Assembly: GCA_035528175.1 (NCBI GenBank)
Contig: DATKZC010000007.1
Location: 1 to 54,515, forward strand
Origin: Minisyncoccota bacterium
Lineage (GTDB): Bacteria > Patescibacteriota > Minisyncoccia > RBG-13-40-8-A
Direction: 5' to 3'
DNA length: 54,515 bases
Shown: positions 2,930-49,626 of the stretch, one piece after another
Numbering within the stretch: the stretch's first letter is position 1
Layout: every line of letters starts with the position of its first letter
The notes under the pieces: generated by a model
The model's input: only the letters and a program-made list of their open reading frames with translations
What the model was told of the DNA's origin: nothing
Databases searched by the model: none
Program-made: the position numbers and the translations under genes

Positions 2930-3180
2930 ACATATTGCACTTTTCTGCTAATCTGGGAGCATATGAAAACTATGCCCAAATCAACTAAAGAAGAAAAGTT
3001 TAGATGGATTAAACCAATATTAGATATGGAATACAATAACTTAGAACACTGCGGATTAAATGGATTAACTCCTAACGAAATGCTACAATTATTAACTACT
3101 AACGAACCGACAAATGTCCATGGTTAAAACATAAAGGTAATGCATACACAGATATATACAATTTTTCTCGATCGTGAGGA
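2916..3180. repeat. Imperfect direct repeat of about 45 nt (2916-2960 and 3136-3180) flanking a roughly 220-bp insert at the 5' end of the radical SAM gene
   Basis: GGTAATGTATACACACATAT... versus GGTAATGCATACACAGATAT..., about 75% identical over about 45 nt. Cys-rich remnants (CNMC, C-x3-C) appear in other frames. Confidence 0.55.
2963..3127 (+). mobile_element. Transposase remnant: 54-codon ORF resembling fused N- and C-terminal ends of an rve/DDE transposase
   Basis: MKTMPKSTKEEKFRWIKPILDMEYNNLEHCGLNGLTPNEMLQ... The YNN.EH.GLNGLTPNE segment resembles the conserved C-terminal tail (YN..RPH..L.g.tP.e) of integrase-core transposases. No catalytic core is present. GGGAG lies 5 nt upstream. Confidence 0.45.
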
Positions 3181-3226
3181 ATTGTATATATTGTTTTTTA
3201 ACTCATATCGTAATTGAAAATTAATG

Positions 3227-3248
3227 CGACCCCGCGCTGGCGGGGTCG
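3227..3248. repeat. GC hairpin CGACCCCGC-gctg-GCGGGGTCG downstream of rpsI (weak terminator or repeat element)
   Basis: 9-bp perfect stem 34 nt past the rpsI stop, with only a short T-tract after it on the minus strand. It shares GCGGGGTC with the hairpin at 18646-18663. Confidence 0.5.
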
Positions 3249-3281
3249 ACATGTATTCTTGAAATAAATAATCCAAGTAGT

Positions 3282-3818
3282 TTACCTCTTTGACCACTGC
3301 GGGGCTTTACGGGCTTTTTTAAGTCCGAATTTTCTACGTTCTTTCTCTCTTGGATCTCTTTTCAAAAATCCTAATTTTTTGAGCCGTTTTCTAAAATTAA
3401 TATCAAATAAAATCAATGCTCTTGAAATCCCGTGCCTGACAGCTTCTGCCTGGCCAGAAATACCTCCGCCTTTAACTTTTACCGTACCTCCAAATTTGTT
3501 TGTCGATTTCAACTTAGTAAATGGCGATTCAACTGTTTGTTGTAAAATAGTAGTCGGAAAATATTCTTTATAATTTTTGCCATTAATCGAAAAATTACCA
3601 TTTTCCATTGACTCTACTGAATCAACAGTATACAGCCTCACCCTAGCAACTGCTCTTTTTCTTCTACCAACTGCTTCAAAATACTGAGCTTTCTTTGATT
3701 TCTTGATTGTTTCCCCGCCAACACTTTTAGAGTTAGGCGGACCTGCCTGTTTGTCAGTCGTAGATTGACTTATGGCGGGTTTTTTAGTTTTTTTAGTTTT
3801 CTTTAATTTCTCCGGCAT
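3282..3818 (-). CDS. rpsI: 30S ribosomal protein S9 with a roughly 45-aa Lys-rich N-terminal extension
   Basis: C-terminal 130 aa are typical S9 (GRRK.AVARV, GGG.SGQAEA.RHGISRAL, ends KAPQWSKR). It overlaps the end of rplM by 26 nt. Confidence 0.93.
   Translation of the reverse strand: MPEKLKKTKKTKKPAISQSTTDKQAGPPNSKSVGGETIKKSKKAQYFEAVGRRKRAVARVRLYTVDSVESMENGNFSINGKNYKEYFPTTILQQTVESPFTKLKSTNKFGGTVKVKGGGISGQAEAVRHGISRALILFDINFRKRLKKLGFLKRDPREKERRKFGLKKARKAPQWSKR
3735..3749 (-). repeat. GC-rich core CAGGCAGGTCCGCC (encodes QAGPP) inside the rpsI N-terminal extension
   Basis: The same CAGGCRGGYCCGCC core, with the same QAGPP reading, occurs in the rpsF C-terminal insert (49425-49439). Confidence 0.5.
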
Positions 3819-4158
3819 ATAATTTTAAATTCTTTATAGTTTTACTTCTTAATGTGTTTTTTGGAAGCATATCATAAATTGCCCTTTTTAACGGCACGCT
3901 CGGGTCTTTTTTTAATAAATTCTTTAATATAATTGTGCTTATCCCGCCTGGATAACCGGAATAATGATGGTATTTTTTGTTTTCCATCTTGTTTCCCGTA
4001 TAAACTATTTTTGCAGTATTGAAAACTATCACTTTATTGTCGCTGACTTTATAGGCTGCAAAATTTGTATCATTTTTCCCACGTAAAAAAACAGCAACTT
4101 CGCTTGCCAATCTCCCAAGCACCTTTCCCGAAGCATCAATTGTATATATCTTTGCCAT
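3793..4158 (-). CDS. rplM: 50S ribosomal protein L13
   Basis: 121 aa. The N-terminus IDASGKVLGRLAS.VA..LRGK and the YSGYPGG motif are typical of L13. It sits directly upstream of rpsI, as in most bacteria. Confidence 0.93.
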   Translation of the reverse strand: MAKIYTIDASGKVLGRLASEVAVFLRGKNDTNFAAYKVSDNKVIVFNTAKIVYTGNKMENKKYHHYSGYPGGISTIILKNLLKKDPSVPLKRAIYDMLPKNTLRSKTIKNLKLYAGEIKEN

Positions 4159-4160
4159 AA

Positions 4161-4514
4161 TTATTTTTTAACTAATTCAATCAAGACCATTTTAGCGGCA
4201 TCCGCTTTTCTGGAAGCAGTTTTTATAATTCTGATGTATCCACCTGCTTGATTGATGTATCGCGGACCAATTTCCTTCATTAATTTATCGACTATTCTTA
4301 CTGGAAAAGTTTTTAATAAAATTCTCCTGTCAGCAATAGTATTTTTTCTGGCTCTGGTTATTGCTTTTTCCAAAAACGGCCTCATTTTTTTTGCCTTGCC
4401 CTCGGTGGTAAATATTTTTTCTTTTAAAACCAACGCAGATGCCAAAGAGCGCAGAATTGCTTTGCGCTGATGAAACGAACTTCCCAGTTTTTGTTTCTTT
4501 TTTCTGTGCCGCAT
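4161..4514 (-). CDS. rplQ: 50S ribosomal protein L17
   Basis: 117 aa. MRHRKK..KLG....HRKA.LR.L is typical of L17. It follows rpoA with a TAATG stop/start overlap. Confidence 0.93.
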   Translation of the reverse strand: MRHRKKKQKLGSSFHQRKAILRSLASALVLKEKIFTTEGKAKKMRPFLEKAITRARKNTIADRRILLKTFPVRIVDKLMKEIGPRYINQAGGYIRIIKTASRKADAAKMVLIELVKK

Positions 4515-22194: not shown

Positions 22195-22310
22195 ATCCGA
22201 ATGATACGAACATTTATCCGAATCAACGAATTATTTGTAGATTCGCATATCAATTTGCCTGCCCGACATCGCCTTTGGCTTAGTCAAGAGGCGGGCGGGT
22301 AGATTCGAAT
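22195..22310. repeat. Composite repeat: an AT-rich TCGNAT word array interrupted by a GC-rich inverted-repeat element
   Basis: Words ATCCGAAT, GATACGAA, CAACGAAT and TTTGTAGATTCG are shared with 41246-41705 and 49542-49626. The GC segment at 22246-22298 is flanked by the direct repeat GTAGATTCG (22237-22245 and 22299-22307). Confidence 0.6.
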
Positions 22311-22327
22311 AATAAATTTAAAAAAAT

Positions 22328-38700: not shown

Positions 38701-41238
38701 TCACATTGGCTCTTTTATCTCATTTGTATTTATTTCCACAAAGTCCCCACGTTTCAAATTCTGTTCAAGAATTATTTTCGCCACCCTGCTTTCAACTTCA
38801 TCCTGAATTACTCTTCTCATTGGTCTAGCTCCGAATTCAGGTTTATATCCCAATTTTACAATTTTTTCTACCAAATCCGAATTCACTATTAAACGCACTC
38901 CTGTTCCTTCCATTAATCGCTTAGACAAATCATTCATCATCAAAACTGCAATCTTAATTAAATCATCGTGAGACAATGGCTTAAATACCACCACCGCATC
39001 AAAACGATTTAAAAATTCTGCTCTGAAAATTTTCTCTTTCATTAGATAATCAACCAAATCTTCTTTAAAAGACGCCAAATTCCTTCCTTGCCTTACGCAC
39101 TGTCTAATTAATTCTGAGCCCGCATTCGAAGTACCGATAATAATTGATTCGGCAAAATTTACTCTCTTGCCAAAAGCATCAGTCAGCCAGCCCTCGTCTA
39201 AAACCTGAAGAAAAAGATTCAAAATATTGGGATGGGCTTTTTCAATTTCATCCAAAAGAATTAAGGAAAAGGGGTCATCATTCACCGCATTGGTCAAAAG
39301 CCCTGACTCGCCTTTTTCCTCTGACCCGATTAATCTGTTAATAGTAGAAATTTCCTGATATTCAGACATATCAAATCTAATCATTTTACTATCTGAACCA
39401 AAATACGCTTCAGCCAAAGCTTTTGAGGTTTCGGTCTTGCCAACTCCAGTCGGCCCAAGAAATAAGAAACTGCCAATTGGCCTTTTCTTGGATTTCATTC
39501 CAACCCTTGCCCTTCTCATTGCCTGGGAGATGACTTTCACTGCTTCTTCCTGGTCAATAATTCTTTCATGAATTCTTTCTTCAAGATGCAGAAGTTTTTT
39601 CTTTTCATCCTCTTGGATTGCGCCTATTGGTATTTCGACCCGCTCTGAAATAATTTTATTTACATACTCCGGCAAAACTGCCTTTTCTCTTTTTTGTTTT
39701 GTATAAACCAAAACCTCGGTTAAAATATCAACAGCTTTGGCAGGAAACGGCTTATCTGCCATATAACGGTCTGTCAGTTTGATAATGTCTCGCAAAATCC
39801 GATAACTTATAAAAATATCATATCTTTTTTCAAGTCCTGGCAGCATGTCCTCAAGAATAAAGATTGTCTGTTTTGGGGTCGGCTGGCTCATCTCTACTTT
39901 AACGAACAAATTTTTGACCGAGGTATTGTTTTTAATGTATTTATGCCAGCCATCAATAGTGGTTAATCCGATAATCTGAAAATTCGGCGAATTCAGATAC
40001 GGCAACAGGACTGAAGTAATATCAACAGCGCCCGGACCCTTTTCGTAGCCCAAATAATTGTGAATCTCGTCAATAATCAAAATAATGTTGCCGGCGCTTA
40101 TTGCTTCGGTAAATATTATTCTTAATCTTTCCAGAATGTCGCCAGAACTGTTTAGCCCTGCCAATACTGCCTGCATATCCAGTTCCAATACTCGCTTATC
40201 ATTTAAATTCTGAAAACTTCTTCCTTCAACAACTTTTTTGGCAAAGCCGTAAGCAATAGTTGAACGACCCGAACCTGGCTCGCCAATAAGCAAAACATTG
40301 TTTTCTCCGCTTCGGGAAAGAATTCTTTCAATGGCATAAATTTCTTTTTTATGACCGATGAGATTAATTGATAAATCTTCTTTTTTGATAATTTCAGTGA
40401 CTTCAACGCTATAATGATCCAAGTTGACGGTATAGCCGGCTGCCCAGCGTTTGCCCACTCCCCTTCTGCGCAATAAATTCTCCAAGAGCCAGAATTGTTT
40501 TCTTTTTAATATTTCGTGTTCAGTATAATCTTCCCAGATTGCCATGTGGTCAACATCCTCAAAAGTCATTTCTGAAGCAGATAAAATATTTCTGAAATTA
40601 TCATTTCCTTCGGCCGCAGCAACCAAGAAATCTCTTGCTTCAATGGTTCTATGGAAACTGGAAATAGCCAAGACAGCAGCATTTTTCAAAATTGACATGA
40701 ATTTCTGCTCGTCATCGCCTGGTTCAATTGTTTGCTTGATTTCTATTTTTAATTTTTCCCTGAATAAATCCTGGTCTAAGCCGAGATTATTAAAAATATA
40801 TTTGCCTTTAGCATCTCCCCAAAAATAATACACGACCGCAAAAGTATTCAGTCCTCTCTTTTTCTTTTGGCAGAATTTTAACGCCCGGACAATTGCCCTG
40901 GCCACACGGAAATCCAGATATTGCGCTAAATTAACATCTTTTACTTTTTCTACTGAAAGCCGATTAGCCAGAGACGATTTTATTAAAAAATTCTGGCGCA
41001 AAGCATCAACAAAGGCCAAGTAAATCGAAAAAATAACAAAAAAGCAGATAAGAATTATAAACAAGGCAAAACTTTGCTGCGAAGACAATTCCAAAAATCC
41101 CGACTTTAAAAACCCAGCAAGAAAAACCAAAGCAAGAAGAATAAAAATAATATTCAGAATTTTTATAATTTTTGGCGGGAAAACTCTTTCCAACTGGATT
41201 GCCCGATACATTAGATTTCTTTTTTCTAAATCAAACAT
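38701..41238 (-). CDS. Membrane-anchored ClpB/ClpA-family AAA+ ATPase (two AAA modules, no M-domain, no ClpP loop)
   Basis: 845 aa. Two N-terminal TM helices (aa about 24-44 and 57-77) are followed by a Clp-N-like region. D1 has GEPGSGRST (Lys to Arg in Walker A) and IIDEIH. D2 has GPTGVGKTE, LLDEIEKAH and FRAEFLNRFD. Confidence 0.85.
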   Translation of the reverse strand: MFDLEKRNLMYRAIQLERVFPPKIIKILNIIFILLALVFLAGFLKSGFLELSSQQSFALFIILICFFVIFSIYLAFVDALRQNFLIKSSLANRLSVEKVKDVNLAQYLDFRVARAIVRALKFCQKKKRGLNTFAVVYYFWGDAKGKYIFNNLGLDQDLFREKLKIEIKQTIEPGDDEQKFMSILKNAAVLAISSFHRTIEARDFLVAAAEGNDNFRNILSASEMTFEDVDHMAIWEDYTEHEILKRKQFWLLENLLRRRGVGKRWAAGYTVNLDHYSVEVTEIIKKEDLSINLIGHKKEIYAIERILSRSGENNVLLIGEPGSGRSTIAYGFAKKVVEGRSFQNLNDKRVLELDMQAVLAGLNSSGDILERLRIIFTEAISAGNIILIIDEIHNYLGYEKGPGAVDITSVLLPYLNSPNFQIIGLTTIDGWHKYIKNNTSVKNLFVKVEMSQPTPKQTIFILEDMLPGLEKRYDIFISYRILRDIIKLTDRYMADKPFPAKAVDILTEVLVYTKQKREKAVLPEYVNKIISERVEIPIGAIQEDEKKKLLHLEERIHERIIDQEEAVKVISQAMRRARVGMKSKKRPIGSFLFLGPTGVGKTETSKALAEAYFGSDSKMIRFDMSEYQEISTINRLIGSEEKGESGLLTNAVNDDPFSLILLDEIEKAHPNILNLFLQVLDEGWLTDAFGKRVNFAESIIIGTSNAGSELIRQCVRQGRNLASFKEDLVDYLMKEKIFRAEFLNRFDAVVVFKPLSHDDLIKIAVLMMNDLSKRLMEGTGVRLIVNSDLVEKIVKLGYKPEFGARPMRRVIQDEVESRVAKIILEQNLKRGDFVEINTNEIKEPM

Positions 41239-41245
41239 ATTTGTT

Positions 41246-41705
41246 CCGATACAAATCTACAAATGGTATACGAATGCTACAAATCTTAATTAAGAATTCT
41301 TTTTGGTTTTATATAAGAATCTCTAAAATTCACAATTAACCCTAATCGCAACTTAGCGGCTCCAAGATATCTTTTCATCTGATAATAATCTTCTCTTAAA
41401 ATAAACTTTTTCGCCTTTAAATCAATTATGATTTTATCATCTATTAAAAAATCTACTTTATTCCCCTTGATTTCATAATCGTCATTATGAATTGGCACCT
41501 CTTTTTCTCTCTCGTATTTTATATTGTCTTTTTTAAATTTAATCTCAAGTAAATCAGCATACTGTCTTTCTTTACAAAATCTGCCTAATTCGTTATGTAC
41601 ATCAAAGAATAGACCCGTTAATTTATAAGAAACATCTGGATAAATAATTTTCACATTTTTTCTCATTTGTAGATTCGTATAAAAATTCGTTGATTCGTAT
41701 CGGGG
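41246..41705. mobile_element. GxxExxY-nuclease cassette bounded by roughly 40-bp imperfect inverted repeats
   Basis: The left end CCGATACAAATCTACAAATGGTATACGAATGCTACAAATC (41246-41285) matches the reverse complement of the right end (41667-41705), CCCCGATACGAATCAACGAATTTTTATACGAATCTACAA. Identity is about 80%, and the ORF fills the interior exactly. Confidence 0.6.
41286..41666 (-). CDS. GxxExxY protein (PD-(D/E)XK nuclease superfamily)
   Basis: 126 aa. LTGLFFDVHNELGRFCKERQYADLL fits the G....E..Y helix, and D.(D/E)xK-like VDFLIDDKIIIDLKA and GLIVNF are typical of the family. Confidence 0.75.
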   Translation of the reverse strand: MRKNVKIIYPDVSYKLTGLFFDVHNELGRFCKERQYADLLEIKFKKDNIKYEREKEVPIHNDDYEIKGNKVDFLIDDKIIIDLKAKKFILREDYYQMKRYLGAAKLRLGLIVNFRDSYIKPKRILN

Positions 41706-41719
41706 CTACAGTGCTAAAT

Positions 41720-42097
41720 TTAAATTATAAGCACTGCAGCAAAAATTAAAAGCCCCAGTAGAACTAGAGGCATGACCAGCCAAAGCGCGAAAAATATCGC
41801 TCCGACAACAGTTACTAAAATTAAAAATACAATACCAACTAAAATTGTAATCAATCTCACCAAAAATCCCAAACCGCGGGAAATTAGATTAAAGGCTAGG
41901 TAATCAAGAAATTTTTTAATATCCAATCCTCTCGGTTTACGGGTAATGTCTCTTTTCCAAGGCGCGAATAATGTTTTTAAAAGTAAGGGAATGGAAAAAT
42001 AATTCAGAGCAAAAATAACAAAATTCCTCCAAGCATCTAAAACGTTCCCAGCCGCTTCGCCATAATACCATTTCCAAAACACCAACAAAATAGCCAT
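41720..42097 (-). CDS. Hypothetical small membrane protein
   Basis: 125 aa with about 3 TM helices and no motif recognised. Confidence 0.55.
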   Translation of the reverse strand: MAILLVFWKWYYGEAAGNVLDAWRNFVIFALNYFSIPLLLKTLFAPWKRDITRKPRGLDIKKFLDYLAFNLISRGLGFLVRLITILVGIVFLILVTVVGAIFFALWLVMPLVLLGLLIFAAVLII

Positions 42098-49541: not shown

Positions 49542-49626
49542 CCCGATACCAATCAACGAATCACATCCGAATCTACAAATCTAAAAATATTCGTAGCATT
49601 CGTATCATATTTGTAAATTAGTATCG
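49542..49626. mobile_element. MITE-like ORF-less copy of the GxxExxY cassette ends
   Basis: The left half CCCGATACCAATCAACGAATCACATCCGAATCTACAAATC is about 80% identical to one cassette end. The right half ATTCGTAGCATTCGTATCATATTTGTAAATTAGTATCG matches the other end. The outer bases CGATAC/GTATCG are complementary. It fills the rpsF-ssb spacer. Confidence 0.6.

Follow-up and report, generated by a model that had tools for sequence, protein, structure and literature searches.

A GxxExxY nuclease gene in the loop of a word-array palindrome, a candidate insertion cassette of Patescibacteria

Contig DATKZC010000007.1 of a Minisyncoccota bacterium (Patescibacteriota; assembly GCA_035528175.1), analysed over a stretch of 54,515 nt (the window in what follows), contains a small gene of the GxxExxY (PDDEXK_3) nuclease family set exactly between two inverted arms of about 40 nt, each of them an array of short words. 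The whole unit lies between a membrane-protein gene (memb) and a gene coding for a ClpB-like AAA+ protein (clp). That arms and gene form a discrete arm-gene-arm unit, gained and lost over time, is well supported. The gene occupies the loop of a palindrome that is also found gene-less at other sites and in other species, and for this reason it has the look of a small mobile cassette of a kind not described before. The reading that we favour, although tentatively, is that of a palindromic insertion cassette of Patescibacteria, similar to the intervening sequences (IVSs) of rRNA genes and to miniature inverted-repeat transposable elements (MITEs), with a nuclease that may home into, or maintain, its own palindromes.

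Read in the sense of the gene, the 5' arm (arm A, 41703 down to 41664) is CCGATACGAATCAACGAATTTTTATACGAATCTACAAATG. Its final three bases are the start codon, the last word plus a G making the ATG of the nuclease gene. The 3' arm (arm B', 41285 down to 41246) is the reverse complement of CCGATACAAATCTACAAATGGTATACGAATGCTACAAATC and follows the TAA stop directly. The two 40-nt arms abut the start and stop codons and enclose one small open reading frame (ORF), as the stem of an IVS does. Aligned with two 1-nt indels, they agree at 33 of 40 positions, and each consists of two double-words of ~16 nt lying ~20 nt apart, with ATRCNAAT words spaced 8-11 nt. An earlier note, made from the letters of the window alone, had described inverted flanks of about 80% identity around this ORF, one of them ending at the start codon, with CCGATAC, ATACGAAT and ATCTACAA as shared strings. 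All of this was found as described, with similarity far above chance. Some details had to be corrected: arm B' starts 0-1 nt after the TAA (41286-41288) and not 5 nt past it, ATRCNAAT describes the words better than TCGNAT, and two extra C's counted in the repeat (41704-41705) are part of a separate hairpin formed with the end of the upstream coding sequence. The local alignment of the arms scored 41. When segments arranged in this way were taken at 3000 random places in the window, the score was 12.9 ± 2.7, and only two places reached 41. Clusters of CGAAT/ATTCG words are present at three sites only in the 54.5 kb, which disposes of the possibility, raised in the same note, that the repeats are ubiquitous intergenic words. 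Promoter and terminator scans of the arms gave nothing above the shuffled expectation.

The architecture recurs around other members of the family. We compared 80 further loci of the Candidate Phyla Radiation (CPR) with nuclease homologues of 51-72% identity, containing 75 GxxExxY genes after removal of duplicates (L-numbers below designate comparison loci from other genomes). The inverted-repeat (IR) score of the flanks reached the 99th percentile of a positional null for 31 of these genes (41%) and exceeded the 95th percentile for 49, while the 99th-percentile score was reached by only 11 of 444 other ORFs of the same loci (2.5%; Fisher p 2e-20). Sharing of the inverted flanks by other GxxExxY copies, which the earlier note had proposed to look for, was thus found in these loci. 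The CPR arms do not belong to a single sequence family. Each array is made up of three to five words with the logo A-T-R-C-N-A-A-T and a spacing of 7-12 nt (mode 8), the outermost of which carries a signature of its own, (C/T)GAYRC-N-AAT, conserved across sub-families. In 637 kb, 236 such arrays were counted, and block-shuffling of the sequence left 20. A GxxExxY gene is enclosed by 58 of the 64 convergent array pairs at gene distance, and some 20 array pairs abut as gene-less hairpins. The cassettes sit at many operon junctions, including those of hydrogenase subunits, recG, lspA/comM-like and ligA, and are co-oriented with the upstream neighbour in 56 of 60 cases and with the downstream one in 50 of 60. 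The gap between cassette and neighbouring gene has a median of ~40 nt on each side, and therefore the arms fill the spacer. Two GxxExxY cassettes lie side by side in L072, L034 and L114. In L072 (923-1109, equivalent to L077 1848-1987) a 47-nt arm unit is also present three times in tandem ahead of an inverted array. The genome has 36% G+C and CNAAT is a short word, so that generic AT-rich intergenic words could in principle produce arrays by chance. We give this explanation practically no credence, since it is refuted by the positional and shuffling controls, by the low frequency among other ORFs and by the preservation of the arms across saturated divergence described below.

Gene-less hairpins of the same words were found at two places of the window. 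The first begins 2 nt past the rpsF stop and ends 9 nt ahead of the ssb ATG. Each of its two arms, A and B, is closest to the cassette arm of the same name, down to the second and fourth words, which are specific for each arm. This copy folds into an extended, imperfectly paired hairpin (z -2.6 on one strand and -4.1 on the other in comparison with shuffled sequences). In the second, a GC-rich stem-loop of 42 nt (22258-22299; -29.9 kcal/mol, z -3.4) sits exactly within the word ATTTG^TAG of the B' arm, and its deletion restores the alignment of a full-length 40-nt arm. No further copies of this stem-loop were detected in the window or in the fetched loci. Terminal inverted repeats (TIRs) together with gene-less copies in the same genome are the combination known from TIR transposons and their MITEs. 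The spacer between rpsF and ssb may be a second recurrent site, as ssb is flanked on both sides by word arrays in L101 (2666-3124).

The same cassette is present in other genomes, at the same locus and at others. The order memb, nuclease, clp with CCGATAC...GTATCGG arms was found in four related Patescibacteria (the window, L004, L007 and L132), the nuclease being 83% identical to that of the window in L004-L006 and 73% in L007 and L132. A homologue of 72% identity is located between ligA and gatC (L008/L030) and another of 69% in a polysaccharide-synthesis cluster, at the junction of a hexapeptide-transferase gene and wzz (L133). In termini and in the word order of each arm, both agree with the memb-clp cassettes. 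The cassettes of L007 and L008 are mutually closest (dN 0.15; B arms 92% identical) despite their different loci. This is the same unit at unrelated loci, with arms that co-diverge with the gene, and therefore arms and gene travel together. L133 (1700-2300) contains an arm A, the gene and then a complete hairpin of arm A and arm B', suggesting recombination between arms or insertion beside an existing hairpin. A tblastn search of a plasmid collection gave no match, and a scan of viral contigs for the arm pattern gave seven chance matches, none of them with a partner arm or a gene.

Gain and loss can be followed at the junction between memb and clp, a pair that is widely kept (21 GTDB genomes). 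This junction is filled by the full cassette in the four genomes mentioned above, carries a gene-less hairpin of 63-76 nt made of related words in L009 and L013, and is empty in L010, L011 and L012, where only 1-3 nt separate the stop codon from the start codon (TAA-T-ATG). Empty sites in sister genomes, another of the checks put forward in the earlier note, were thus found, along with junctions holding only a hairpin. On a neighbour-joining tree of Clp these states are interleaved: L012 (empty) and L013 (hairpin) are sisters with 91% identity and have L004 (cassette) as their neighbour, and L007 (cassette) groups with L011 (empty). Such a pattern requires that the unit was gained or lost repeatedly. 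Such presence/absence polymorphism at a conserved site among relatives is also what homing endonuclease genes display. In more distant genomes the same junction contains a GIY-YIG ORF (L015, 2555-2830, Niyogibacteria) or an ORF coding for a four-helix-bundle protein of the 23S_rRNA_IVP family (L016, 3032-3430, another Parcubacteria genome), indicating that it is a recurrent landing site for different small genes.

Once inserted, the unit has been preserved for a long time. Among the window, L004, L007 and L008 the ratio of non-synonymous to synonymous substitutions (dN/dS) of the nuclease is 0.07-0.14 with dS above 1, and the arms are 82-95% identical where the four-fold degenerate sites of Clp are only 38-43% identical, and therefore the arms are functional. 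Compared with the corresponding arms of L004 and L007, arm A of the window has 90-95% identity and arm B 82-92%. Identity from A to A and from B to B across genomes equals or exceeds that from A to B within an element. Both nuclease and arms are thus under strong purifying selection. This, together with the dS above 1 between carriers, indicates that the cassette at the memb-clp junction is old and vertically inherited.

The conservation could also be explained at the RNA level, in a way similar to IVSs, if the arms paired in the polycistronic mRNA and the stem were cut by RNase III, or acted as stabiliser, leaving the ORF insulated from the operon. Size and architecture match the rRNA intervening sequences that RNase III excises (PMC4990558), the cassettes are mostly co-oriented with their operons, the solo hairpin folds better than shuffled sequence on either strand and some changes in both arms preserve pairing, e.g. 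ATACGAAT/ATTCGTAT to ATACAAAT/ATTTGTAT. The comparison of 37 cassettes speaks against it, with no excess of mismatches compatible with G-U on the sense strand (41 vs 50, p 0.40) and no difference between sense and antisense folding energy (p 0.41). For this reason the idea of an RNA stem with sense-strand G-U wobbles, suggested in the window by a G of arm A facing an A of arm B, was dropped. Furthermore, transversion mismatches between arms outnumber transitions, and the N of CNAAT, which is the least conserved position (57% identity between arms, against 76-92% elsewhere), is paired in 56% of the word pairs. The primary sequence of each arm is conserved beyond complementarity, and this, with the missing G-U bias, points to DNA recognition by a protein and not purely to an RNA stem. 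A search for RNA runs with the locus found none. An RNA role would also leave unexplained how the unit arrives at new sites. As the sole explanation we consider it decidedly improbable, and it could apply in addition to one of the other models.

What kind of enzyme might read the arms is suggested by the structure of the protein. The ORF matches PF13366 PDDEXK_3 (E 2.4e-25, 89.6 bits, cut-off 22) and TIGR04256 GxxExxY (E 6e-25, 87.9 bits, cut-off 35). The AlphaFold2 model (predicted local distance difference test, pLDDT, 83.6) has the order alpha-alpha-beta-beta-beta-beta-alpha-beta, and its best Foldseek match is Cas4 SSO0001 (4ic1; E 1e-4, template modelling score 0.53-0.58), followed by lambda exonuclease and MGME1, with the Holliday-junction resolvase Hjc in 20th place. 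E33, D72, K84, Q96 and Y100 are among the residues invariant in 30 sequences, and we take them to correspond to the E...D...(D/E)xK...QxxxY motif set of the RecB/Cas4 branch. A sequence search of the PDB found no solved relative, and the PADLOC and PHROG libraries gave only weak similarity to Cas4. Pfam, NCBIfam and the fold search show PD-(D/E)XK only, with no sign of a HUH Y1 transposase, and this single protein of 126 aa is the whole coding content of the cassette, without a transposase of any recognised class.

The nuclease is not the only cargo. The non-GxxExxY ORFs with inverted flanks include four 23S_rRNA_IVP (PF05635) genes, three of them with scores of 33 or more and the one in L016 with 30, and in L066, L016 and L053 genes of this family were found in the word-array architecture. 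Their arms contain CTAAT words with a pyrimidine before the C, where GxxExxY arms have a purine in 84% of cases (a small sample). L066 carries cassettes of both kinds ~600 nt apart on one contig, the GxxExxY one at 3001-3399 with ATGCGAA words and the four-helix-bundle one at 3976-4451 with TTCTAAT/ACCTAAT words, a hint, again from a small sample, that the arms are specific for their cargo. Of the arguments for each protein reading its own arms, this hint of cargo-specific words is the strongest. None of the GIY-YIG genes of the same loci has word-array flanks, and therefore the architecture is not common to all small intergenic nuclease genes.

A second kind of cargo invites a different explanation. 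The hairpins might be an independent family run by an unlinked factor, similar to MITEs or to repetitive extragenic palindromic (REP) sequences, with small genes lodged in the loops as in a safe harbour and the nuclease doing another job such as repair or defence. The presence of the non-nuclease 23S_rRNA_IVP in the same architecture would fit, as would the frequency of gene-less hairpins (in the loci sampled, about one in every 20-50 kb), their presence or absence without any gene (L013 vs L012) and the long-term vertical inheritance of the protein under strong purifying selection. It is harder to reconcile with a passenger that a single gene family accounts for the content of 58 out of 64 array pairs of gene size, that the arms co-diverge with their own gene across loci, that GxxExxY genes outside CPR carry arrays of other words and, as a hint only, given the small sample, that the two cassettes of L066 differ in their word variants. 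We regard this explanation as unlikely, but to be kept in mind.

The evidence from outside CPR comes from a search in which a consensus sequence served as probe only; the matches are real PF13366 proteins of Cyanobacteria, Calditrichota, Desulfovibrionales and others. L114 has two GxxExxY genes (2189-2692 and 3001-3462) within the nuo operon, one between nuoJ and nuoK and the other between nuoK and nuoL, whose cores are flanked by inverted arrays of another word, ACGCAGAG (IR scores 48 and 39). Gene callers include these arrays in the coding sequence, and the called ORFs of 153 aa are thereby extended at both the N- and the C-terminus ('NRRDAETQ'). In L118, from a genome related to that of L114, the nuoJ-nuoK junction is empty (TAA-C-ATG, 1690-1700). 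Judging from this small sample of sequences, the word-array architecture does not appear to be confined to CPR. In L110 (1290-6378, Desulfovibrionales) a GxxExxY gene is located beside a 23S_rRNA_IVP gene, a WYL-domain gene and cas3, and the word arrays on its two sides are in direct, not inverted, orientation. A more general proposal would be that GxxExxY and, in parallel, four-helix-bundle proteins of the S23p/Avd-like type are dedicated proteins of palindromic word-array elements found across bacteria, each protein reading lineage-specific 8-nt words (ATRCNAAT in Patescibacteria, ACGCAGAG-type elsewhere) and driving the copying of its gene into gene-less hairpins and operon junctions. We consider this possible but doubtful. 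If true, it would represent a new mobility mechanism based on a minimal Cas4/RecB-like nuclease, of which rRNA intervening sequences would be one special case.

Returning to the cassette of Patescibacteria, the reading that we favour can be put as follows. The element consists of two inverted ATRCNAAT arrays with a distinct outer terminus, (C/T)GAYRC, which abut in gene-less copies, the loop of the hairpin being exactly filled here by a gene for a minimal Cas4/RecB-like PD-(D/E)XK protein. It has entered the tight stop-to-start junctions of housekeeping operons in the same orientation as their genes, and is gained and lost over evolution, with the ability to last very long once in place. The nuclease would recognise the word arrays as DNA and cut at or near the symmetry centre of gene-less or empty copies, or at the ends of the element, and host recombination would mend the break from a gene-bearing copy, with the 40-nt arms as homology. 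Gene-less hairpins would then be non-autonomous partners or targets of the nuclease gene. Continued activity of the homing type would yield purifying selection on both protein and arms.

Several observations weigh against this reading. The strongest is the 23S_rRNA_IVP cargo, which argues against a mechanism based on the nuclease alone, because with a non-nuclease protein in the same architecture the cargo need not be the mobility enzyme. Clear inverted flanks are present in about 41-65% of the GxxExxY relatives only. The hairpins of L009 and L013 have different words and no CCGATAC terminus, and are not simple gene-deleted derivatives of the cassette. No consistent target-site duplication was found between filled and empty sites (window, L004, L007, L008, L013 against L012, and L114 against L118), a possible TA duplication in L114 finding no support elsewhere, and no other mechanistic footprint of insertion was detected. 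Within populations, no polymorphism between empty and filled sites was seen in the assembled contigs of three soil metagenomes, which contained no joints and were of low depth. Finally, the long vertical persistence at one locus fits a domesticated gene, beneficial for the host, as well as a selfish one. The nuclease probably acts on the word arrays, and that it also moves the unit is what we infer. Of the selfish or mobile unit suggested in the earlier note, the discrete unit with the same termini and word order at memb-clp, ligA-gatC and in L133 stands, and its image as a selfish parasite needs changing: the cassette is old, vertically inherited here and does not have the appearance of a decaying parasite. 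Likewise, the arm-gene-arm arrangement with the nuclease as the gene of the unit holds, but the arms also occur gene-less and with 23S_rRNA_IVP.

Domestication could have taken a form known from REP-associated tyrosine transposases (RAYTs), i.e. a single-copy vertical host gene flanked by the repeats on which it acts, dispersing or controlling the gene-less hairpins. The window has one gene copy in 54.5 kb, flanked by inverted copies of a dispersed repeat, and the locus is kept across species with saturated synonymous sites and a dN/dS of about 0.1. Such a system is rather improbable here: the gene splits one hairpin instead of lying between whole repeats, the same cassette is found at other loci in other genomes and in adjacent copies in L072, L034 and L114, the pattern at the memb-clp junction is patchy and the enzyme class is unrelated to the HUH transposases.

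The positions of the features are collected in Table 1. The three genes memb, nuclease and clp are all on the minus strand, with a tRNA-Val gene just upstream, and the neighbours are those that the earlier note had named, a small membrane protein gene and a clp-like gene. An Rfam scan of the window detected two tRNAs only, and no rRNA. The stem-loop formed by the last memb codons and the spacer (-21.6 kcal/mol, z -4.3) is also present in L004 (2740-2775) with compensatory changes, CAGTGCT/AGCACTG in the window corresponding to CAGTATTG/CAATACTG. It is limited to the lineages of the window and L004 and missing from L007, L008 and the empty-site genomes, and was dropped as a defining part of the element because it is lineage-specific. 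In addition, the GIY-YIG ORF of L015 was matched by tblastn over a mere 40 aa, with 55% identity, at positions 857-976 of the window (minus strand), which may represent a small GIY-YIG gene or a fragment of one.

Table 1 Features of the cassette, its neighbourhood and the gene-less hairpins in the window
Feature	Position	Strand	Remarks
GxxExxY / PDDEXK_3 gene	41286..41666	minus	126 aa; minimal Cas4/RecB-like PD-(D/E)XK nuclease; E33, D72, K84, Q96xxxY100
Arm A (5' arm, gene sense)	41664..41703	minus	four ATRCNAAT words; outer terminus CCGATAC
Arm B' (3' arm)	41246..41285	minus	inverted array, four words; outer terminus GTATCGG in gene sense
Gene-less copy between rpsF and ssb	49543..49626	plus	arm A 49543-49581, 8-nt loop, arm B' 49590-49626
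Second gene-less word-array hairpin	22195..22312	plus	B' arm split by a 42-nt GC-rich stem-loop
memb, upstream host gene	41720..42097	minus	125-aa membrane protein; across Patescibacteria kept immediately 5' of clp
clp, downstream host gene	38701..41238	minus	ClpB-like AAA+, 845 aa; ATG 7 nt past arm B'
Stem-loop just 5' of arm A	41704..41760	minus	last memb codons and spacer; stop codon in loop

GxxExxY/PDDEXK_3 is among the most abundant uncharacterised small protein families in bacteria. One search gave at least 8000 of these proteins, all with E of 1e-15 or lower, and a survey of the PD-(D/E)XK superfamily lists the function of PDDEXK_3 as unknown (PMC3424549). In the full-text literature on GxxExxY, on PDDEXK_3/PF13366/TIGR04256, on the IVS protein names and on CPR palindromes we found no paper on the mobility of the family, its flanks or this architecture. 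Travel as a cassette would provide a testable explanation for the scatter of this family through bacterial genomes, and the arms or the solo hairpin are a defined candidate DNA substrate for the nuclease. There is also a link to rRNA intervening sequences, as the IVS protein family shares the architecture here. For annotation, it should be considered that gene callers may read the arms as N- or C-terminal extensions, as in the 153-aa ORFs outside CPR.

Small palindromic insertion elements are a known kind, and the closest described ones are the rRNA IVSs with S23p ORFs, the REP/RAYT systems and MITEs. As an enzyme, the GxxExxY protein resembles the Cas4/RecB/lambda-exonuclease branch in its best structural matches and in its motif set, from which it differs by its size of only 126 aa, the lack of Fe-S cluster cysteines and the lack of CRISPR or recombination partner genes nearby. 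Free-standing homing endonuclease genes (seg and mob of T4, or the PD-(D/E)XK I-Ssp6803I) are likewise small nuclease genes, set tightly between conserved neighbours, that some relatives have and others lack; the GIY-YIG ORF at the same junction in L015 and the pattern of gain and loss recall the homing cycle. Unlike the cassette, they have neither inverted repeats at their borders nor palindromic counterparts without a gene. Pairs of TIR transposons and MITEs share with it the terminal inverted repeats with a conserved outermost motif, the short gene-less derivatives in the same genome and the polymorphism of filled and empty sites between relatives. The cassette differs in having no detected target-site duplication and no DDE, serine, tyrosine or HUH transposase, in that its whole arm is a multi-word array and in its insertion precisely at stop-to-start junctions.

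In REP sequences and their doublets (REPINs) with RAYTs (HUH Y1), one gene lies between inverted copies of a short palindrome, which is itself scattered through intergenic regions in gene-less form. As with the cassette, the gene passes on vertically under purifying selection and the repeat sequences are specific for each lineage. The flanking geometry is analogous, with the difference that the cassette gene splits one palindrome, lying in the loop of a single hairpin and not between two complete REPs (the palindrome being present at three sites in 54.5 kb). The enzyme is Cas4/RecB-like and not HUH, there is no GTAG/CGTC tag, and cassettes are found at several loci, sometimes in tandem. The IVSs of bacterial 23S and 16S rRNA genes with an S23p/23S_rRNA_IVP ORF have been described in Leptospira and Coxiella, and their origin and mobility have been open questions since about 1990 (PMC4990558). 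The cassette is located between protein-coding genes and not in a helix of 16S or 23S rRNA, its cargo is a PD-(D/E)XK nuclease, its arms are made up of repeated short words whose mismatches fall at a fixed position, where IVSs have a near-perfect stem, and the statistics of its arms do not favour a role limited to RNA. On the other hand, both are ~430-460 nt long with terminal inverted repeats (28 bp in Coxiella) enclosing a single small ORF, both have a sporadic phylogenetic distribution, and the IVS protein family PF05635 itself is found in the same word-array architecture in CPR loci.

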